From assembly GCA_031414955.1 (NCBI GenBank), contig JANOQV010000012.1, positions 31,100 through 95,099 of the forward strand: 64,000 nucleotides of DNA, given 5' to 3'. The notes beneath the pieces are model-generated. The model made no database searches, was not told the origin of the DNA, and worked only from the letters and a program-made list of their open reading frames with translations. A program made the position numbers and the translations under genes. This document shows, one piece after another, positions 84 through 59,945 of the stretch. The DNA comes from Pedosphaera sp. Its GTDB lineage: Bacteria > Verrucomicrobiota > Verrucomicrobiia > Limisphaerales > SIBH01. The first letter of the stretch is position 1. The number at the start of each line of letters is the position of its first letter.

Positions 84-1172
84 ATGGAAGTTTTCAACCG
101 GATACTCAGGGCGGCCGTGGACGCGCACGCCTCTGATTTGCACATAAAAGTGGGCGGCCCGATCGTTCTGCGCATCAGTCGCCAGCTCATCGCTATCGAG
201 GCTCCCATTCCCACCGTCGAGTGGATGGATAATGTGATCACCCATCTCATTCCCCACCACATGAAGGCGCATTTTGATGAAAAGCGTGAGGCGGACTTTT
301 CCTATCTCGTCCACGGCATCGGGCGGTTCCGGACCAACGTCTTCCAGCAACGAGGCGAAATGGCCGTCGCCATGCGCTACGTCAAGGCCCAGGTGCCCGA
401 CTTCGAGCATCTGGGTTTGCCTCCCATCATGCGGCAGTTGGCCGAGTCGCCCCGCGGCATCGTGCTGCTGGCCGGCACCACTGGCTCGGGCAAATCCACC
501 TCGCTCGCCGCGATGATCGAGCACATCAATTGTAACTTCCGCAAACACATCGTCACCCTGGAAGACCCCATCGAGTACGTGTTCGAGGACAATCAATCCA
601 TCATCGAGCAACGCGAAGTCGGCCTCGATACTGAGACCTTTTACTCGGGCCTGCGCGCCGCCCTGCGCCAGGATCCGGACGTGGTGATGATTGGCGAAAT
701 GCGCGACTCCATCACGTTCGCGTCCGCCATGAATTCCGCCGACACAGGTCAAACAGTGCTCTCCACCGTTCACACCACCAACGCTTCGCAATCCATCGTC
801 CGCATCCTTGACTATTTCCGGGCGGATGAACGCGAGCAGGTGCGCCGCCAGTTGTCCGTCACCCTCAAGGCCGTCGTCTGCCAGCGCATGGTTCCCTCGC
901 TCGATGGCAAAATGGTTCCCGCCTGCGAGATCATGCTCAACACGCCCCTCGTGCGGAAACTTATCGAGGAGAATCGCCTCGACAAACTTTCCGTAGCGGT
1001 CGAGACCGGGGTCGATGACGGCATGCAGGATTTTAACAAAGCCGTCTTCGATCTCTACAACGCGGGCAAGATCTCCAAGGAAGAAGCCATGCTCAAGGCC
1101 AGCAACCCCGCCGCGCTGGAGATGAACCTCAAGGGCATCTTCCTCACCCAGGGCAGCCGGATTCTCGGGTAG
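84..1172 (+). CDS. pilT: Type IV pilus retraction ATPase, PilT/PilU family
   Basis: 362-aa ORF. Walker A 'GTTGSGKSTS', Asp-box 'DPDVVMIGEMRD', His-box region 'TGQTVLSTVHT', and an N-terminal 'ASDLHIKVGGP' segment typical of PilT. Confidence 0.9.
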   Translation: MEVFNRILRAAVDAHASDLHIKVGGPIVLRISRQLIAIEAPIPTVEWMDNVITHLIPHHMKAHFDEKREADFSYLVHGIGRFRTNVFQQRGEMAVAMRYVKAQVPDFEHLGLPPIMRQLAESPRGIVLLAGTTGSGKSTSLAAMIEHINCNFRKHIVTLEDPIEYVFEDNQSIIEQREVGLDTETFYSGLRAALRQDPDVVMIGEMRDSITFASAMNSADTGQTVLSTVHTTNASQSIVRILDYFRADEREQVRRQLSVTLKAVVCQRMVPSLDGKMVPACEIMLNTPLVRKLIEENRLDKLSVAVETGVDDGMQDFNKAVFDLYNAGKISKEEAMLKASNPAALEMNLKGIFLTQGSRILG

Positions 1173-1390
1173 GTCCGGAGCGCTTGGCCAAACCCTGGCG
1201 AGTCAGGCCCGATCAAACTGAACGCGCTTCGTTTTCACCATTCCCGCTTTCAGGCTGGCTCTCGTTGGGCGGACTTTGGGGGATGCGGTCGGTGGCGCTC
1301 GCCTTTCGCTACGGGTGCTTCCGTAGCGCCGCCGGAGAGAATGCAGTTGCACGAACCGACCTGACGGCTTTCATTGGCCGCAACCTGACT

Positions 1391-3253
1391 ATGATTCAAA
1401 CAAACACGCCGCTGAAAGTCTTCCTCGCCACCACCGCTCTTTTTCTTGCCACCCAGGGCGCGCGCGCAGCCGCCCTGCCGCCGGGATTTGTGGAGATCAC
1501 TCTGGCCAGCGGTTTCACGAATGCCAGCGCCCTGGTCGTGGCCCCCGATGGCCGCGTTTTCGTAGGACAGCAAAACGGCGTCATCAGGGTGGTGAAGAAT
1601 GGCGTCTTGCTGCCGACACCTTTCGTGCGCGTGCCGGCGGACTCGAACACCGATCGCGGCCTGATTGGTTTGACCATTGATCCTGGGTTCTTGAGCAACG
1701 ACCTGGTGTATGTGAGCTACACCGCCACGAACACGGCGGTCGCCGGAACTTTTCTCCAGCGCATCAGCCGGCTCACAGCCAGCGGCGATGTGGCCCTGCC
1801 CGGCAGCGAAACGATCTTGTTCGAGACCGATGCCTTCGCCGGGTCAGTGGTCCGCGAGGTAGGCGGTGGTTTGCGCTTCGGCCCGGACGGCTTGCTCTAC
1901 GCCGGCATGGGACGGAGCGGCCCGGATTCAAACTCTCAAACCCTGAACAGCCAGTTCGGGAAAATTCTACGCCTGAACAGTGATGGCAGCATTCCGCCCT
2001 CGAATCCGTTCTTTGCCACGGCGGTGGGGAAGAATCGCGCCATCTGGGCGGTGGGCTTGCGTAATCCCTTCGCCCTCTCCTTCCAACCCGGCACGGGCCG
2101 GATGTTCATCAACGATGTGGGCCAATTAACGCGGGAAGAAATCAACGAGGGGGTGATGGGCACGAATTACGGCTGGCCAGTGTGTGAAGGGCCTTGCGTC
2201 AGCGTGACCAACCTGAATCCCGTTTTCAGCTACTCGTCCGCCGCGCCGGCCGTGGAATGTGCCATCACGGGCGGCACATTCTACAATCCGGCCGCAGCGC
2301 TTTTCCCACCGCAGTTCGTAGGAAACTATTTTTACTCCGACTACTGTTCCTCCAAGATTTACGCCCTCCAGCCCGCCACGACGAATTCCACCGTCTTCGC
2401 CAGCAACATCGTCGGCTTTGTGGTGGCATTGGATGTGGGGCCGGAAGGATCGCTCTATTGTCTGGGCCACAGCGCCTCGCCGACGGGGGGCGGTGTCCTG
2501 AGCAAGTTCGTTCCGGGCGTCGAGACGCTGCTGCCCTTCGGCTCGACCTGGAAGTATCTCGACACCGGCATCTCCAACATCCCTGCCAACTGGGTGCAAT
2601 CTGCCTTCGACGACAGCACCTGGTCCAACGGACTAGCGCAGTTGGGCTGGGGCATCAACGGCGAAGTCACCCTCGTGCGCAGCAACCGCACCGACCTCAC
2701 CCGCATCACTACCACTTACTTTCGCAAGTCCTTCGTGCTGACCAATACCGCGCCTTACAGCAATTACGTGGTGAGTTTGGTCCGTGATGACGGCGGCGTG
2801 GTTTATCTGAACGGAACGGAAGTGTTTCGCAGCAACATGTCCACCGGGTTGATGACTTCGACCAATCTGGCCCTCGTCGGCATCGCCAATAACGACGAGC
2901 GGGCGACGCATGGCGCGGTGCTCAATCCCTCGTTGCTTCTACATGGCACCAACCAATTCGCCGTGGAGATTCACCAGCAGTCAATCGTTGGAACCTCCAT
3001 CGACATGAGCTTCGATCTCTCGCTGCTCGGAGTGAATGGCGGGGCCACGCTCCGCGCGCTCAGTTCCGGAGGCGGCATCACCCTGGCCTATCCGCTCTGG
3101 GCCTCGCGCTTCGCCGTCGAGTCCACAACCAACCTGACCACCGCGAGTTGGCTCCCGGTGCCGACGAACGGCGCGACCGCGGTCGGGAATGAACTGCAAC
3201 TGCCTCTGAACACGACCCAGCCTCTGGAAGTTTTCCGCCTGCGCAGCCCGTGA
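1391..3253 (+). CDS. Secreted PQQ-dependent sugar (glucose/sorbosone) dehydrogenase-like beta-propeller fused to a C-terminal jelly-roll module and a short C-terminal tail domain
   Basis: The ORF track starts at 1184, but the Met at 1391 begins a signal peptide (MIQTNTPLKVFLATTALFLATQGARA). 'LPPGFVEITLASGF..LVVAPDGRVFVGQQNGVIRVV', 'GLRNPF' and 'NYGWP' fit the SGDH fold. The C-terminal module carries 'WKYLD..W..FDDSTW..TTYFRKSF..RDDGGVVYLNGTEVFRSNM..AVEIHQ'. Confidence 0.75.
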   Translation: MIQTNTPLKVFLATTALFLATQGARAAALPPGFVEITLASGFTNASALVVAPDGRVFVGQQNGVIRVVKNGVLLPTPFVRVPADSNTDRGLIGLTIDPGFLSNDLVYVSYTATNTAVAGTFLQRISRLTASGDVALPGSETILFETDAFAGSVVREVGGGLRFGPDGLLYAGMGRSGPDSNSQTLNSQFGKILRLNSDGSIPPSNPFFATAVGKNRAIWAVGLRNPFALSFQPGTGRMFINDVGQLTREEINEGVMGTNYGWPVCEGPCVSVTNLNPVFSYSSAAPAVECAITGGTFYNPAAALFPPQFVGNYFYSDYCSSKIYALQPATTNSTVFASNIVGFVVALDVGPEGSLYCLGHSASPTGGGVLSKFVPGVETLLPFGSTWKYLDTGISNIPANWVQSAFDDSTWSNGLAQLGWGINGEVTLVRSNRTDLTRITTTYFRKSFVLTNTAPYSNYVVSLVRDDGGVVYLNGTEVFRSNMSTGLMTSTNLALVGIANNDERATHGAVLNPSLLLHGTNQFAVEIHQQSIVGTSIDMSFDLSLLGVNGGATLRALSSGGGITLAYPLWASRFAVESTTNLTTASWLPVPTNGATAVGNELQLPLNTTQPLEVFRLRSP

Positions 3254-3519
3254 GGACTGGAGTGCGGAGCCAGCCTCGCCCTGCCCGCGACTTTCGGCGG
3301 GTCGCCCCTCTGCGTTCGAAGCGGAGGAATCCTGCTTGTGCAAGGGAGCCTTCTCCATAGGATTCATTCCGTTGTCTGGGGGGCATCCGCGCGGAGGCTG
3401 GGAAACCGCTGGCTCGTCGGGCCGCGGGCCGGTGACCTGATCGTATGGCAGAACACCGGGCCATGGCTGGTTTCCGCGCCGCCCCACCCGACCTCGTTTG
3501 ATTCAACACAGTACTTAAA

Positions 3520-4485
3520 ATGAAAAAATATCTTTGGCCGGTGCTTGTCCCCATGTTCTTCACCCTGCTGTCGCTGGTCTCAGCCCAAGCCGCGACTCTC
3601 TTCCCCGTGCTGGTCGGCGACCGTTGGGGCTTCATCGACAAGTCCGGGACCGTGGTCATCAACCCGCAGTTCGAGCGCGCGGGCAACTTCGCCTCGGGCC
3701 TGGCGGAAGTGCGCCTGGGCAAGTGGGGCTACGTCGCTCCGTCGGGCAAGTTGGTCATCAACCCGCAGTTTGACCAGGCGGCCGGCTTCCAGGGTGGGCT
3801 GGCGGTAGTTGAGTTTGGCGACCGATTTGGCTTCATCAATGCCGAGGGCAAGTACGCCATCAACCCTCAGTTCGATGCCGCCGGCCCGTTCTCGGAAAAT
3901 CGAGCCGCAGTCAAACTCAAGCGCCTGCATGGCTACATCGACAAGACCGGTGGCATCGTGATCAACCCGCAGTTCCAAAGCGCGGAACCGTTCTCCGAGG
4001 GGCTGGCAGCCGTGGAATTAGGCGGTCGTTTTGGCTTCATCGATCCGGAGGGCAACATCGTCATCAATCCGCAGTTTGACAAAGCCAGTTCGTTTGCCTA
4101 CGGACTGGCCGCCTTCAAACTGAATCGGCGCTGGGGCTTCGTCAGCAAGGCCGGCAAGATCGTGATCAACCCGCAGTTCGACGAAGTTGGGCCGTTCGTG
4201 AAGGAAGTGGCGCCCGCGCGCCTGGGCAAGTGGGGTTACGTCGACGCGACGGGCAAGTTCACCATCAACCCGCAGTTTGACGAGGCGGGCGAATTCTCGG
4301 AAGGCCTGGCGCGGGTTCGGTTGGCCGGTCGCTGGGGCTTCATTGATCGCAGTGGCAAGTTCGCCATCAACCCCCAATTCGACGAGGCGATGTCCTTTAC
4401 CGACGGGCTGGCCCGGGTAAAGATCGGCCGCAAGATTGGCTACGTCGATCCCACCGGGAAGTACGTCTGGAATCCGGTGAACTGA
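3520..4485 (+). CDS. WG-repeat (KWG-type) secreted protein
   Basis: Signal peptide MKKYLWPVLVPMFFTLLSLVSAQA. About 9 tandem ~35-aa repeats follow, of the form 'WG(F/Y)ID..GK.VINPQFD.A..F..GLA.V'. Confidence 0.8.
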   Translation: MKKYLWPVLVPMFFTLLSLVSAQAATLFPVLVGDRWGFIDKSGTVVINPQFERAGNFASGLAEVRLGKWGYVAPSGKLVINPQFDQAAGFQGGLAVVEFGDRFGFINAEGKYAINPQFDAAGPFSENRAAVKLKRLHGYIDKTGGIVINPQFQSAEPFSEGLAAVELGGRFGFIDPEGNIVINPQFDKASSFAYGLAAFKLNRRWGFVSKAGKIVINPQFDEVGPFVKEVAPARLGKWGYVDATGKFTINPQFDEAGEFSEGLARVRLAGRWGFIDRSGKFAINPQFDEAMSFTDGLARVKIGRKIGYVDPTGKYVWNPVN

Positions 4486-7083: not shown

Positions 7084-10000
7084 CTACGCCAGCACGTCCG
7101 CCAGGAATCGACCAGTGTGCGAGCCTTTGGTCCGCGCCACCTGCTCCGGCGTGCCCTGCGCCACCAGCGTGCCGCCGGCTTCGCCCGCCTCGGGACCGAG
7201 ATCGATCACCCAGTCGGCCTCGGCGATGAGGTCGAGGTTATGCTCGATGACGATGACGGAGTGTCCGGCCTCGACGAGCCGCTGAATCATTTCCACCAAT
7301 CGCCGCACATCGGCCATGTGCAATCCGATGGTGGGTTCCTCGAGGATGAACAGGTTGCGCTTCTGCTTGGGGTCGAACAGCGTGGGTTGCCTGAGTCCGG
7401 TGAGCAGATGCGTGACGAGCTTGACCCGCTGCGCCTCACCACCGCTCAAGGTCGGGCTGGTCTGGCCGAGTTGGAGGTAGCCCAACCCCGTGTCGCGCAA
7501 CGCCTCGATGGGCCGTTTGATTTTCGGGAAGCTCGCGAAGAACTCGATGGCTTCCTCGACCGCCAGATCCAGCACCTGCGCGATGTTCCGGCCCTTGTAT
7601 TCGATGTCGAGGGTCTCGCGATTGAACCGGCTCCCGCCGCACGTCTCGCAACGCACGTAAGCCGGCGGCAGGAAGTTCATCTCCAGCTTGATCTGGCCCG
7701 CGCCCTCGCATTCGGGGCAACGACCCTGCGCGCTGTTGAAGGAAAATCTTCCCGGCCCGTAGCCGCGCATCCGGGCCTCGGGCGTCTGGGCGAAGAGCGC
7801 GCGGATGTCGTCGAAGAAACCGACATAGGTCGCCGGCGTGGAGCGTGGCGTGCGTCCGATGGGCGATTGATCGACTTCATAGACTGCGGCGATTTGCTCG
7901 TGACCAGAAACAATCTCGCCCGAAGGCGGCCCGACCTTGGACGCTCGCTCGCGCTTTATCGGAGTTGGACCTTGGCCCTTGGACCGCTTCAGCTTCCCCA
8001 GGAGCGTGGGCAACAAACACTCCCGGATAAGCGTGCTCTTGCCCGAGCCGCTCACGCCGGTCACCACCACGAAGCGATTCAGGGGAAACTCGACGGTGAG
8101 GTTTTTGAGATTGTGAACGGACGCGCCGCGCAGCACCAACGTGCCCCCGGCGTCCCGCCGGGTCGGGGCGCTCTCCGTCCGGGCAGTCCTCCTGGGCTTG
8201 AGCACGGAACCCGGCGGGACGCCGGGGGCACGTTGCACTGACCGCCTCTCCCCGCGCGCCGGATACTGCTTATGTTCCCGCAGGCAGCGCCCCGTGATGG
8301 AGTCCTCTTGCCGCAACAACTCGGCCAGCGTTCCAGCCGCGACAACCACGCCGCCTTGCACGCCGGCACCGGGGCCAAGGTCCACGATGAAATCCGCGCG
8401 ACGCATGGTCGCTTCATCATGTTCGACGACCACGAGCGAATTGCCGCGCGCCCGCAACTGCTCCAGGGTGGCGATAAGCTGCTCATTGTCGCGCGCGTGC
8501 AGGCCGATGGTCGGCTCGTCGAGCACGTAGAGCACGCCGCAGAGGTTGGAACCAAGCTGGGCCGCAAGCCGGATGCGCTGGGCTTCCCCGCTGGAGAGCG
8601 TGGTCACGCTGCGACCCAGTTGCAGATAACCCAGACCCACTTCGAACAGAAACTTCAGCCGCTCGGAAATTTCCGGAATCATGTCGCGAGCGATGAGCGC
8701 CTCGCGTCCGCTGAACTGGAGCGTGCGGAAAAACTGCGCGGCCTGCGCCACCGACAGTTGAGCGACCGAATCGATAGTGGGCGGCTTTGGACCTTGGACG
8801 CTCGCTCGCGATTTATCGGAGTTGGACCTTGGACCCACACAATCAAGCCGCACCGCGCGCGCGATCTCGTTCAGCCGCCCGCCGTGGCACGTCGGGCACT
8901 CCTCGCGCTTGCCTTCCTGCCATCCAAACCATGACTCCTCGATGGCATCGGCCCGCGCGCCCCGCTCCACGTCTGGGAGGTAGAACAACTCGCCAAAGCC
9001 GCGGCATTGGGGACACCAGCCCTGCGACGAGTTGTAGCTGAACATCTTCGGGTCGAGCGGCTGAAAGGAGCGCCCGCACTGACCGCAGGCGCGCTCGGTC
9101 GAATGCACGCTCACATGCTGCTGGTCGTCCACCGCGAGCAAAGTGCCGTGGCCGAGGTCGAGCGTGGTGTCGATAAGTTGTTGCGGGGTGCGCTGGCCGG
9201 GCGCGGTGTTCTCACCGCGCCGGGCGGCGGACGACGTTCGCGGCGCGCTGAGGACAGCGCGCCCTACCTTGCGAGGTTTTGCTTCCAGCACCCCGGTCAC
9301 GATCTCCACATCGTGCTCCTTGAAACGGTCGAGACGCAAAGGCTTGTCGGTGCGGACCAGTTTTCCGTCGGCGCGAACTTCGGCGTAGCCGTGCTTCGCG
9401 GCCCACTCGGCGACGTCGGTATGGAAGCCCTTGCGGTTCTTGACCACGGGCGCGAGCAGCAGCAAATCACCGCGTTGCTTCATCTCCTTTTGCAACTGCG
9501 CCCGCAACTGGTCCCGGGTCTGCGGCTCCACCGGAATCTGGCAGGCCGGACAATACTGAGTGCCGAGCCGGGCCATGAGCAGGCGAATGAAATGATAAAC
9601 CTCGGTGACGGTGGCGACCGTGCTCTTGCCGCCGCCGCGCGTGGTGCGCTGCTCGATGCTGACCGCGGGCGGGAGGCCGGTGATGAGATCCACATCCGGC
9701 CGCGCCATCTGTTCCACAAACTGCCGCGCGTAGGCGTTCATGGAATCGAGAAAGCGCCGCTGCCCTTCGGCGAACAGCAAGTCGAAGGCGAGCGTGCTTT
9801 TGCCCGAGCCGCTTACGCCGGTGATGACGACAAACTTCCCGCGCGGGATGTCGAGCGAGATGTTCTTCAAGTTATGCTGGCGCGCGCCCAGGATGCGGAT
9901 GACATCCGGGCTGGCAACGAGAGTCAGAGGCGTGGGCGCGACGTTCACGGCGGGAGGAGTAACATGAGTCGGTCGAAACGCCAAAATTGAAACCCCGCCT

Positions 10001-10164
10001 CCATGAATGCAGGCCGGCCCAGGCACCCACGCCGCCGGCCCATTTTGGCTCGGGAGAACTATTTGATGTTTGGCGGGCGGTGTTTGGTGTTTATTCCGAG
10101 CGATGTATTCGGCCAACTTCAAAGACGCCGCACTGGTCTTGATTGGGCACGGCTCAACGCTCAA
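7084..10164 (-). CDS. uvrA: Excinuclease ABC subunit A (UvrA), carrying four in-frame repeat-element insertions
   Basis: Two ABC modules ('ITGVSGSGKSTLAFD' and 'VTGVSGSGKSTLIRE'; 'LSGGEAQR' twice; 'YVLDEPT', 'FILEEPT'). Zn-finger cysteines are present (CPAC, CGQCG..CPQCRG, CPTCHG, CPEC..CETC). The start is uncertain: conserved UvrA sequence begins near 'VIRILGARQHNLKN', and an in-frame GTG at 9948 is a more plausible start than the ATG at 10164. That ATG would overlap the divergent gene at 10103. Confidence 0.9.
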   Translation of the reverse strand: MSVEPCPIKTSAASLKLAEYIARNKHQTPPAKHQIVLPSQNGPAAWVPGPACIHGGGVSILAFRPTHVTPPAVNVAPTPLTLVASPDVIRILGARQHNLKNISLDIPRGKFVVITGVSGSGKSTLAFDLLFAEGQRRFLDSMNAYARQFVEQMARPDVDLITGLPPAVSIEQRTTRGGGKSTVATVTEVYHFIRLLMARLGTQYCPACQIPVEPQTRDQLRAQLQKEMKQRGDLLLLAPVVKNRKGFHTDVAEWAAKHGYAEVRADGKLVRTDKPLRLDRFKEHDVEIVTGVLEAKPRKVGRAVLSAPRTSSAARRGENTAPGQRTPQQLIDTTLDLGHGTLLAVDDQQHVSVHSTERACGQCGRSFQPLDPKMFSYNSSQGWCPQCRGFGELFYLPDVERGARADAIEESWFGWQEGKREECPTCHGGRLNEIARAVRLDCVGPRSNSDKSRASVQGPKPPTIDSVAQLSVAQAAQFFRTLQFSGREALIARDMIPEISERLKFLFEVGLGYLQLGRSVTTLSSGEAQRIRLAAQLGSNLCGVLYVLDEPTIGLHARDNEQLIATLEQLRARGNSLVVVEHDEATMRRADFIVDLGPGAGVQGGVVVAAGTLAELLRQEDSITGRCLREHKQYPARGERRSVQRAPGVPPGSVLKPRRTARTESAPTRRDAGGTLVLRGASVHNLKNLTVEFPLNRFVVVTGVSGSGKSTLIRECLLPTLLGKLKRSKGQGPTPIKRERASKVGPPSGEIVSGHEQIAAVYEVDQSPIGRTPRSTPATYVGFFDDIRALFAQTPEARMRGYGPGRFSFNSAQGRCPECEGAGQIKLEMNFLPPAYVRCETCGGSRFNRETLDIEYKGRNIAQVLDLAVEEAIEFFASFPKIKRPIEALRDTGLGYLQLGQTSPTLSGGEAQRVKLVTHLLTGLRQPTLFDPKQKRNLFILEEPTIGLHMADVRRLVEMIQRLVEAGHSVIVIEHNLDLIAEADWVIDLGPEAGEAGGTLVAQGTPEQVARTKGSHTGRFLADVLA
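7933..7985. repeat. 'TTGGACC-type' dispersed element, copy 1, in frame inside uvrA
   Basis: GACCTTGGAC-GCTCGCTCGCGCTTTATCGGAG-TTGGACCTTGGCCCTTGGACC. Translated on the minus strand as ...KGQGPTPIKRERASKVG... Confidence 0.85.
8141..8231. repeat. 91-nt palindromic element in frame inside the uvrA inter-ABC linker
   Basis: GTGCCCCCGGCGTCCCGCCGGGT (8141-8163) and its perfect reverse complement ACCCGGCGGGACGCCGGGGGCAC (8209-8231) flank a 45-nt spacer. Confidence 0.9.
8783..8835. repeat. 'TTGGACC-type' dispersed element, copy 2, in frame inside uvrA
   Basis: GGCTTTGGACCTTGGAC-GCTCGCTCGCGATTTATCGGAG-TTGGACCTTGGACC. Translated as ...GPRSNSDKSRASVQGPKP..., which is shifted by one nucleotide relative to copy 1. 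Confidence 0.85.
9199..9268. repeat. GC-rich repeat (related to the element at 59844-59945) in frame inside uvrA
   Basis: GGCGCGCTGAGGACAGCGCGCCCTACC (9242-9268) matches GGCGCGCTGGGGACAGGCGCGCCCTACC at 59918-59945. It is preceded by the hairpin GGCGCGGTG-TTCT-CACCGCGCC. Encodes ...KVGRAVLSAPRTSSAARRGENTAPG... Confidence 0.75.
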
Positions 10165-28440: not shown

Positions 28441-28700
28441 TCAGCCGCTCTGGTCCACCGCCGAGACGGGAAGAGCGCAGAGGTTTTCCGGCCGGGATCT
28501 CTGTACTGCAATCCATCCGAATCCTCGTGCGCCGCGAGGATTTCTGCCCGCCTGATCCACCGCCGAGGCGGGAAGGGCGCAGAGACAGCGCGTTCGGAAA
28601 GCTCTGCCCCCTTCCCGCCTCTGCGGTGGATCAGCCCGTTCCCTTTGGTTGCGGCTCCGCCGCGCTGTGTCCTTCCCGTCTCTGTGGTGCCACCGGGTGG
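28441..28700. repeat. Cluster of four ~35-nt GC-rich repeats (family 'CTCTGCGCCCTTCCCGCCTCGGCGGTGGATCAG'), two forming a long hairpin
   Basis: GATCCACCGCCGAGGCGGGAAGGGCGCAGAG (about 28552-28582) and CTCTGCCCCCTTCCCGCCTCTGCGGTGGATC (about 28600-28630) are inverted. Further copies lie near 28450 and 28665, and at 34845-34935 upstream of paralogue 2. Confidence 0.75.
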
Positions 28701-34808: not shown

Positions 34809-34943
34809 CATGCCAGTGCAGGCAGCCGCGCAAATTGTTTTCAGCCGCTCTGGTCCACCGCAGAGACGGGAAGAGCGCAGAGGTTTTCCGGCCGGCGATC
34901 TCGGTGTCCTTCTCGTCTCTGCGGTGCCAGAACGCGCCCGGCG

Positions 34944-41716: not shown

Positions 41717-41831
41717 TCTTGCGTTCCCTTCCCGCCGCGGAAGCCGTGTTCATGCTGTTGGAATTTCAACGCCAAGACGCTGGGGAAAACTGACTGATGG
41801 GGGATGGGTTCCAGCAGCGACGGCAAAAATC

Positions 41832-41944
41832 CCGGAGTGCGCCCGTCCTCGGGCGCAGCAATGCTCGCAGGGTGGCAAAGTCTCGAAAACCTGGCTTCTT
41901 TCCGCGCGAGGACATCGCTGCGCCCGAGGACGGGCGCACTCCGG
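41832..41944. repeat. ~113-nt inverted-repeat element, same family as 13965-14075
   Basis: CCGGAGTGCGCCCGTCCTCGGGCGCAGC (41832-41859) and GCTGCGCCCGAGGACGGGCGCACTCCGG (41917-41944) are perfect reverse complements with a 57-nt spacer. The pair is nested inside a second, weaker inverted repeat (TTTCAACGCCAAGACGC near 41765 and GCGCCTTGGCGTTAAAC near 42005). Confidence 0.85.
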
Positions 41945-42069
41945 GTGAGTTCTGCAATCGCGTCTCCAACTTTCCATTTCCGCCTGGCGTCTTCGCGGCT
42001 TTGCGCCTTGGCGTTAAACAACTTGGCCCTCAACCGCATGGATACGGTCCAGAGCCGAAACTCGAGCAA

Positions 42070-59843: not shown

Positions 59844-59945
59844 GGTAGGGCGGCGCTGTCCCCAGCGCGCCGGGGTGAGGCGTGGAAAGTGCGGGAGTTC
59901 TCCTCCATTCGTGGCCCGGCGCGCTGGGGACAGGCGCGCCCTACC
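59844..59945. repeat. ~102-nt inverted-repeat element (family 'GGTAGGGCG.CGCTGTCCCCAGCGCGCC')
   Basis: GGTAGGGCGGCGCTGTCCCCAGCGCGCC (59844-59871) and GGCGCGCTGGGGACAGGCGCGCCCTACC (59918-59945) are inverted with 2 mismatches. It sits in the convergent intergenic region, ending 4 nt before the tail-collar-like gene stop. Confidence 0.85.

Follow-up and report, generated by a model that had tools for sequence, protein, structure and literature searches.

Why does the gene for a UvrA paralogue carry a long, perfect inverted repeat in the middle of its reading frame? The gene lies in a 64,000-nt stretch of DNA from Pedosphaera sp., a soil-type member of the Verrucomicrobiota (referred to here as the window; assembly GCA_031414955.1, contig JANOQV010000012.1, positions 31,100 to 95,099), which belongs to contig C12 of a 6.55-Mb metagenome-assembled genome (MAG; 313 contigs; 5.8% contamination), referred to here as G000. 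We consider, with a probability of roughly 0.85, that the repeat is a tolerated in-frame copy of a genus-specific mobile element, a REPIN (i.e., two inverted repetitive extragenic palindromes [REPs] around a spacer), in the permissive linker between the two ABC halves of the protein. The positions of the element, its host gene, and the related transposase genes are listed in Table 1.

The initial annotation had described a palindrome of 91 nt with 23-nt arms. The perfect complementarity of the arms and the 45-nt spacer were borne out, whereas the lengths were too short: the arms comprise 27 nt each (100% complementary; left arm, CAACGTGCCCCCGGCGTCCCGCCGGGT), the element comprises 99 nt, and the 23-nt arms (8141-8163 and 8209-8231) are the core inside the longer ones. 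The host gene was also reassigned to the minus strand. Only these two arms were found when the window was searched with the 23-mer core, allowing up to three mismatches (0 matches expected from 100 shuffles). The predicted folding energy of the element as RNA was -93.3 kcal/mol, compared with -66.6 ± 3.8 kcal/mol for shuffled sequences (z = -7.0), and that as single-stranded DNA (ssDNA) was -54.2 kcal/mol (z = -9.0). Given the lack of matches among the shuffles and these z-scores, chance does not account for the palindrome. Regarding known regulatory structures, there were zero terminator-like sites between positions 7900 and 8500 (with no T-run after the stem), no promoter-like site at the element, and no Rfam match on it. 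An intrinsic terminator or a known structured RNA was rejected on the basis of the terminator and Rfam results.

The host gene encodes a protein with Pfam matches to ABC_tran and UvrA_inter (i.e., two ABC modules and the UvrB-interaction domain). The Pfam insertion domain UvrA_DNA-bind was not detected in this paralogue, and its CPQCRGFG and CPTCHGGRL motifs are separated by only approximately 40 residues. A phmmer comparison with the PDB gave an E value of 1e-241 to UvrA 9gxk, and orthologues with 61 to 82% identity were present in 30 relatives. Two further UvrA genes are located elsewhere in the genome (C40:22530-24125 and C191). Across the element, the minus strand reads ...YPARGERRSV-QRAPGVPPGSVLKPRRTARTESAPTRRDAGGTL-VLRGASVHNLKNL..., where QRAPGVPPGSVLKPRRTARTESAPTRRDAGGTL represents the 33 codons of the element itself. 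The peptides quoted in the initial annotation match this translation. In the alignment with 9gxk_A, residues 643 to 668 of the query were unaligned, and the flanks (up to 642 and from 669 onward) were aligned to the adjacent residues 628 and 627. Because the flanks meet at adjacent residues, the segment represents nothing but an insertion where the two ABC halves join. The coding strand of the right arm reads TRRDAGGTL, which substitutes for the native residues that immediately precede the LxLxGA strand in the second ABC module (query residues 669 to 676, rrdaggtl, aligned to rkpngkwl of 9gxk). As read from the sequence, the REP arms are free of stop codons in every frame. The catalytic motifs of the paralogue are all intact, and the linker with the insert is absent from the solved UvrA fold.

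The arm is not confined to this gene. It was found at approximately 13 other loci of the genome (i.e., approximately 14 copies in all), 12 of which contain the doublet form, so the element is not unique to the uvrA site. The family arms read (C)AAC-GTGCCCCCGGCGTCCCGCCGGGT plus the complement and are perfect in 6 of the approximately 14 copies. Among copies with two recognizable arms, the spacers between the 23-nt arm cores range from 21 to 66 nt. The identity between the spacer of the uvrA copy and those of other copies is 0.43 to 0.62, while the arms are identical. Each REP unit consists of a conserved (C)AACGTGCC followed by CCCGGCG-TCC-CGCCGGG, which forms a 7-bp stem with a 3-nt loop. The family thus combines a short palindromic unit with conserved flanks, an inverted doublet that folds, and a variable spacer that is less conserved than the REPs. 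Since each arm forms its own hairpin, the arms form an inverted doublet, and the spacer is variable, the element fits the published definition of a REPIN (i.e., two inverted REPs separated by a less conserved spacer of variable length, with the potential to form a hairpin in ssDNA or RNA; PMC3337134). A census of perfect-arm hairpins (≥18 nt) revealed 218 nonoverlapping elements in the genome and at least 14 multicopy families with the doublet design. Strain mixing was considered as a source of the family copies and discarded, as contig C223 was the only one redundant with another contig.

Four of the approximately 14 family copies are in frame in host genes confirmed by Pfam (other copies are classed provisionally as "extragenic"). 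All four are located at interdomain linkers: between the two ABC halves of this UvrA paralogue, just after the DNA-binding domain of the canonical UvrA, between Helicase_C and PriA_C of PriA, and between the two domains of a LamG-BNR sialidase-like protein. The spacer of the canonical UvrA copy is clearly homologous in a congener (G009), and this REPIN looks inherited, judging from that homology. The translated arms usually read APGVPPG or RRDAGGT, with APGVPPG present at six loci. A fixed reading frame was rejected: the second uvrA loop in the congeners G003 and G008 translates the same REP as VPPAS(C/R)RV...GHV, leaving at most a preference. At the level of all hairpins, 22 of the 218 elements (approximately 10%) are inside open reading frames (ORFs) with a coding signal in third-position G+C content (GC3) on both sides. 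The read-through hosts, as identified by sequence reading, include a MutY-like glycosylase, an SNF2 helicase, a sugar-transport ATPase (in its inter-ABC linker), NuoL, a polyketide synthase (PKS), and a Ser/Thr kinase.

We then aligned 21 orthologues of the UvrA paralogue. The segment from YPxRGERRxV to LxLxGAxxHNLK varies from approximately 8 to approximately 90 residues, and eight species have a short linker without any repeat. The element of the uvrA-arm family is present at the same codon position in G003 and G008, and a truncated remnant is present in G011. The REP variant of the G003 copy (GCATCTTGC) is the one particular to that genome, and it also occurs in the copies on either side of the G003 gene for a REP-associated tyrosine transposase (RAYT). 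Other orthologues contain arms of different types at this linker, namely TGGAGTGCGGCGACTTGTCGCCGC in G006 and G013 (another genus), TGTAGGAGACGACG in G030, GTGAGTGAG in G005 and G007, and yet another type in G025. The linker is accordingly filled by this REP family, by at least four other palindromic families, or by nothing. A linker conserved as protein across genera was not observed; in other genera, the linkers are short or contain unrelated palindromes. Together, the dispersed family, its restriction to one genus (see below), and the variable orthologous linkers support the initial annotation in regarding the palindrome as an inserted element that is translated as extra linker.

Regarding its distribution, the REP was detected in all 12 genomes of the genus (2 to 183 hits each). 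There were 0 hits in the sister genus, and the REP was absent from 105 of 106 other genera of the order, with a single one-mismatch match in the 106th. The dominant variant is species specific. In G003, for example, GCATCTTGC replaces GCGTCCCGC, and both the intra-arm and the interarm pairing are kept. In public records, the REP occurs in MAGs with the titles Verrucomicrobiota bacterium, "Pedosphaera sp.," and "Akkermansia sp." In several "Akkermansia sp." MAGs (L103-L165; records JAYVNY, JAYVQC, and JAYVWQ), the REP is present on many contigs, and these MAGs probably belong to the present genus and are mislabeled. Isolated REP contigs, few in number, in Limnocylindria, Acidoferrum, Bifidobacteriaceae, and Planctomycetia bins look misbinned.

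A candidate cognate transposase was found in three congeners. The priA gene, which is single copy in G009, G003, and G008, contains a RAYT in the same reading frame. In G009 and G003, the Y1_Tnp/REP_Tyr_transpos domain retains intact HUH (NHVHVL) and Tyr (EYFDH) motifs within one open frame. The RAYT is complete, is flanked on both sides by REPINs of the uvrA-arm family, and separates the PriA 3'BD/winged-helix part from the Walker A motif. The best NCBIfam match of the G009 RAYT was REP-associated tyrosine transposase, with a score of 71 bits, below the family cutoff (80 bits). The three genomes with the chimera contain 183, 151, and 67 REP hits, compared with 2 to 44 in the nine genomes without it. 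In G010 and G006, a REPIN remnant is present at the priA site without a RAYT. We also observed that, in G009, a canonical uvrA gene with an in-frame REPIN lies approximately 8.5 kb from the RAYT-bearing priA gene (G009:C42; L052 and L078). Local hopping from the RAYT neighborhood could explain this copy.

On the basis of these results, we propose the following history for the uvrA element. It would be a nonautonomous mobile element of the REPIN type (i.e., two inverted 22- to 27-nt REP hairpins around a variable spacer), mobilized as an ssDNA hairpin by a cognate RAYT (an HUH/Y1 tyrosine transposase), as is suggested by what is known of such families. Mobilization of ssDNA hairpins is established for IS200/IS605-type HUH enzymes and has been proposed for REPINs. 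The copy numbers (2 to 183 per congener) are highest where the RAYT is present, which bears on mobility of the REP only indirectly. One copy landed in the surface linker that joins the two ABC halves of the UvrA paralogue, where it is probably retained because it is 99 nt long, is free of stop codons, and encodes a Pro/Gly/Arg/Thr-rich segment. The 33 residues would serve as a longer flexible tether, with UvrA probably remaining functional and little affected. The perfect stem would be a property of the family, in which arms are kept and spacers drift, rather than an adaptation of uvrA. If the mRNA hairpin (-93 kcal/mol) influenced translation or decay, as the initial annotation suggested, it would do so as a side effect. 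A 27-bp perfect duplex, if formed, would be a substrate of the RNase III type, but translation may keep it open.

Several observations weigh against this proposal. No RAYT flanked by this REP was found among the 12 Y1_Tnp matches in the window genome assembly, and the best tblastn match of the G009 RAYT in that genome (47% identity) was located elsewhere. No direct repeat is common to the flanks of the 14 copies, so a target-site duplication does not mark an insertion event. The GTAG or CGTC tag is absent from the foot of the REP stem, where GTGC is found instead (GTGC-C-stem). Transposition of the family is presumed from sequences, and the function of a UvrA bearing the insert is assumed from its intact motifs. 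Furthermore, the uvrA arms of G000 and G008 have 0 differences in 46 positions, while the spacers are 57% identical and the flanking coding DNA is 67 to 77% identical. Given arms without differences between flanks of 67 to 77% identity, a single old insertion that simply decayed neutrally does not match the data. The identical arms would need either insertions that reached this site independently and recently or homogenization of, or selection on, the arms. Orthologous spacer identity (0.57 to 0.64) was not clearly higher than that of paralogous copies (mean, 0.54; maximum, 0.62).

As to the missing transposase, two Y1_Tnp genes of the window genome are flanked by a different family, CCAGCCTGGGGCAACGCCCCAGG. 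At the pre-Walker-A site of the main priA gene (C56:36107-38185), which is complete and on a 121-kb contig, there is an insert derived from another palindrome (SVRGSVSEWVGG...THPLTKP). The other priA version is a fragment resembling that of G009 (C223:1-1729; 5.2-kb contig; 88% DNA identity), which starts inside a REPIN of the uvrA-arm family (family 8). The two priA versions represent either two cobinned strains or a true duplicate. The family in the window genome may be an orphan; alternatively, a contig break may have cost the assembly its RAYT. Two classes of known elements were also compared. A classical miniature inverted-repeat transposable element (MITE) was rejected, since the terminal inverted repeats are present but the 14 copies have no target-site duplication. 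Membership in the GTAG/CGTC-tagged REP superfamilies (PMC3733652) was rejected because of the GTGC tag.

Table 1. Locations of the element, its host gene, and RAYT-encoding genes (the first seven rows give window positions; the others give positions in the locus or contig named)
Feature	Location	Strand	Description
Whole REPIN-like element	8137..8235	.	Two inverted REPs plus spacer; 99 nt = 33 codons
Left arm (REP 1)	8137..8163		CAAC-GTGC-C-[CCCGGCG]-TCC-[CGCCGGG]-T; read from sequence
Left-arm hairpin	8146-8152 / 8156-8162		Own 7-bp hairpin
Spacer	8164..8208		45 nt (also 45 nt between 23-nt cores); variable part of family
Right arm (REP 2)	8209..8235		Exact reverse complement of left arm
Right-arm hairpin	8210-8216 / 8220-8226		Own hairpin
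Host gene	7084..10164	minus	Intact uvrA paralogue, 1026 aa; from ORF and translation
G009 priA-RAYT	L078 (G009:C42) 1-2790	minus	REPINs at 1346-1442 and 2063-2153 around Y1_Tnp
G003 priA-RAYT	L089 (G003:C2) 349-3216		REPs at 1067-1160 and 1775-1868, G003's own variant
G008 priA-RAYT	G008:C113:9017-11809		Same chimera, 95% protein identity
G093 helicase-RAYT	L208 (G093:C42) 724-3798		DEAD_2 or DEAD, Helicase_C_2, and Y1_Tnp by Pfam
G042 helicase-RAYT	L209 (G042:C64) 1581-4469	minus	DEAD_2 or DEAD, Helicase_C_2, and Y1_Tnp by Pfam
G046 helicase-RAYT	L210 (G046:C45) 723-3641		DinG/XPD-type helicase by sequence likeness
Second RAYT clade	L082 (G009:C294) 181-3183	minus	
Second RAYT clade	L092 (G003:C24) 184-3159	minus	
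Second RAYT clade	G007:C54, G042:C33, G078:C374, G025:C6, G087:C87		

The identity of the arms also bears on a first alternative, in which a hairpin at the ABC boundary is kept for the sake of uvrA (e.g., as a translational pause, an RNase III or decay site, or a DNA cruciform), with mobile repeats supplying the raw material. A long inverted repeat is present at precisely this linker in at least 9 of the 21 orthologues. These orthologues represent several families of the order, their repeats fall into at least five unrelated sequence families, and conservation is much higher in the arms than in the coding DNA beside them. In addition, 2 of the approximately 14 copies are in uvrA genes, which represent approximately 0.14% of the genome (0.02 expected; Poisson P of approximately 2e-4 by post hoc arithmetic), and Di Nocera et al. 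likewise doubted that hits on repair genes were due to chance (PMC3733652). However, 8 of the 21 orthologues have the short linker and no hairpin, and G011 has only the truncated remnant. Perfect arms are typical of the whole family, intergenic copies included, and similar elements are present in the linkers of unrelated proteins (sialidase, sugar-ABC ATPase, NuoL, and PKS). The lack of a terminator tail, promoter, or Rfam match likewise offers no sign of a dedicated role. We therefore regard a structure selected for uvrA as improbable.

It is still more improbable that the REPIN is an attenuating insertion, i.e., that it lowers or alters the activity of the UvrA paralogue and that a weak mutator or altered-repair state has been favored, as hypothesized by Di Nocera et al. 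(2013). The recurrence of REP inserts in repair and replication genes, both here (UvrA twice, PriA, a MutY-like glycosylase, and an SNF2 helicase) and in the literature, would agree with such an effect. The intact catalytic motifs, the position of the insert in a linker absent from the solved fold, the many hosts that are not repair genes, and the two further UvrA genes of the genome argue against it.

Finally, a fold-back or a repeat-induced misjoin in the metagenome bin is hardly credible as the source of the palindrome: the MAG is fragmented into 313 contigs with 5.8% contamination, one family-bearing contig (C223) holds a redundant second priA, and contigs break at these repeats (C223 begins inside one), but the reading frame is uninterrupted across the two arms and is bordered by UvrA sequence at either end, the window contig (98.7 kb) is nonredundant, and an artifact is made less likely by the independent MAG assemblies of the congeners G003 and G008, in which this element occupies the identical codon position.

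The tolerated REPIN in uvrA is a new example of a known phenomenon rather than a new phenomenon, since in-frame REP dimers in uvrA genes were reported in 2013. Di Nocera, De Gregorio, and Rocco (BMC Genomics 14:522; PMC3733652) found REPs and REP dimers inside genes, with the highest number in the verrucomicrobium Opitutus terrae, in which both uvrA genes are interrupted by in-frame REP dimers that add 20 to 30 residues. They proposed that tolerance is due to a flexible-linker location, noted an overrepresentation of replication and repair genes among the hosts, and reported that the REPs of orthologous recB genes differ although their positions nearly coincide (PMC3733652). The present element shares the phylum, the host gene family, and the in-frame dimer form with the O. 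terrae REPs. It differs from them in being genus specific, in having GTGC in place of GTAG, and in having perfect 27-nt arms. Neither a transposase in frame in priA nor at least five unrelated families at one UvrA linker across an order was found in that report (PMC3733652).

The doublet architecture is that of the REPIN-RAYT systems of Pseudomonas fluorescens SBW25 and Escherichia coli (Bertels and Rainey 2011; PMC3116915 and PMC3337134), in which each REPIN family is tied to one RAYT that is flanked by its REPINs, is single copy, and is vertically inherited (PMC3337134). In those systems, the REPINs are described as extragenic and the RAYTs as free-standing genes of approximately 500 bp, whereas here 4 of approximately 14 copies are translated and the RAYT is within the priA frame and scores below the NCBIfam RayT cutoff.

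A classical analogue, similar in behavior, is known from Rickettsia. Rickettsia palindromic elements (RPEs) were reportedly described by Ogata et al. in 2000. They are approximately 100 to 150 bp long, encode family-specific conserved peptides, and occur in an alphaproteobacterial genus, and the likeness to the REPIN described here is behavioral only. RPEs are palindromic repeats in frame in many unrelated Rickettsia genes, and the folds of their host proteins are considered able to accommodate them (PMC10969869).

By itself, the single locus matters little. It is useful as a clean case, with a perfect 27-bp stem, a length of exactly 33 codons, empty, filled, and remnant orthologues, and a traceable cognate transposase. 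It would be a good system for studying the tolerance of coding hairpins, the identity of arms against the drift of spacers and codons, and the recurrence of repair and replication hosts. For annotation, it accounts for APGVPPG, RRDAGGT, and related peptides in predicted proteins of the genus and warns that contigs break at these repeats.

The part that is likely to surprise specialists is the presence of in-frame RAYTs in priA or dinG-like helicases. The closest relatives of the priA RAYT, from other families of the order, are 48 to 56% identical and are located in open frames of 970 to 1,040 aa. The nearest (52 to 56% identity) are embedded in frame in the DinG/XPD-type helicases of G093, G042, and G046. 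The RAYT of G042 (L209) is bracketed by in-frame, GTAG-tagged REPINs (AAAAGTAGGGCAGGCATCCTGCCTGCC), and the same REP-derived peptides were seen at the peptide level in G093 and G046. Because the G042 relative is flanked by true GTAG REPs, the architecture of the present family is GTAG-like, with a different tag. A second RAYT clade, present in several families of the order, is in frame in the middle of proteins of 1,370 to 1,450 aa with a C-terminal UDPGP (nucleotidyltransferase) domain. No literature combining a RAYT with priA was found, an absence that is no proof of novelty, and fusions are not mentioned in the RAYT classification paper.

These observations prompt a tentative and, in our judgment, unlikely idea, namely that, in this order, the proteins of replication restart and repair do more than tolerate the REPIN/RAYT systems and are linked to them both physically and functionally. 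It is suggested by the RAYT in the only priA gene of each of the three REP-richest congeners, by relatives in a DinG/XPD-type helicase, and by the strong overrepresentation of REPINs of the family in uvrA and priA. If so, helicase-RAYT chimeras might bring the ssDNA transposase to forks or repair intermediates; alternatively, essential repair genes might be deletion-proof shelters for the transposase and the hairpins. In either case, the hairpin in uvrA would count among the visible products of the coupled system.

The same uvrA gene contains further repeat-derived in-frame segments at window positions 7933-7985, 8783-8835, and 9199-9268. In the orthologue alignment, the first of these corresponds to approximately 14 extra residues specific to G000 (GQGPTPIKRERASK). 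The loop that matches 8783-8835 is occupied instead by a REPIN of family 8 in G003 and G008 (L024, approximately position 3231; L026, approximately position 3205). Four other long inverted repeats in the window (28552-28634, 34856-34926, 41831-41945, and 59844-59945) belong to other REPIN-like families of the genome, such as family 0 (CGGAGTGCGCCCGTCCTCGGGCGCAGCAA), for which at least 30 copies were found and not one is in frame. A different hairpin family, CTCCCTCTCCCCTCAACGGGGAGAGGG, has 18 copies, 6 of which are in frame. One copy of the latter (C248:5605-5734) is in frame in a MutY-like glycosylase, as identified by sequence reading. Another (C165:51015-51145) is in frame between the two ABC halves of a protein that, by its sequence, looks like a sugar-transport ATPase, in parallel with the situation in UvrA.

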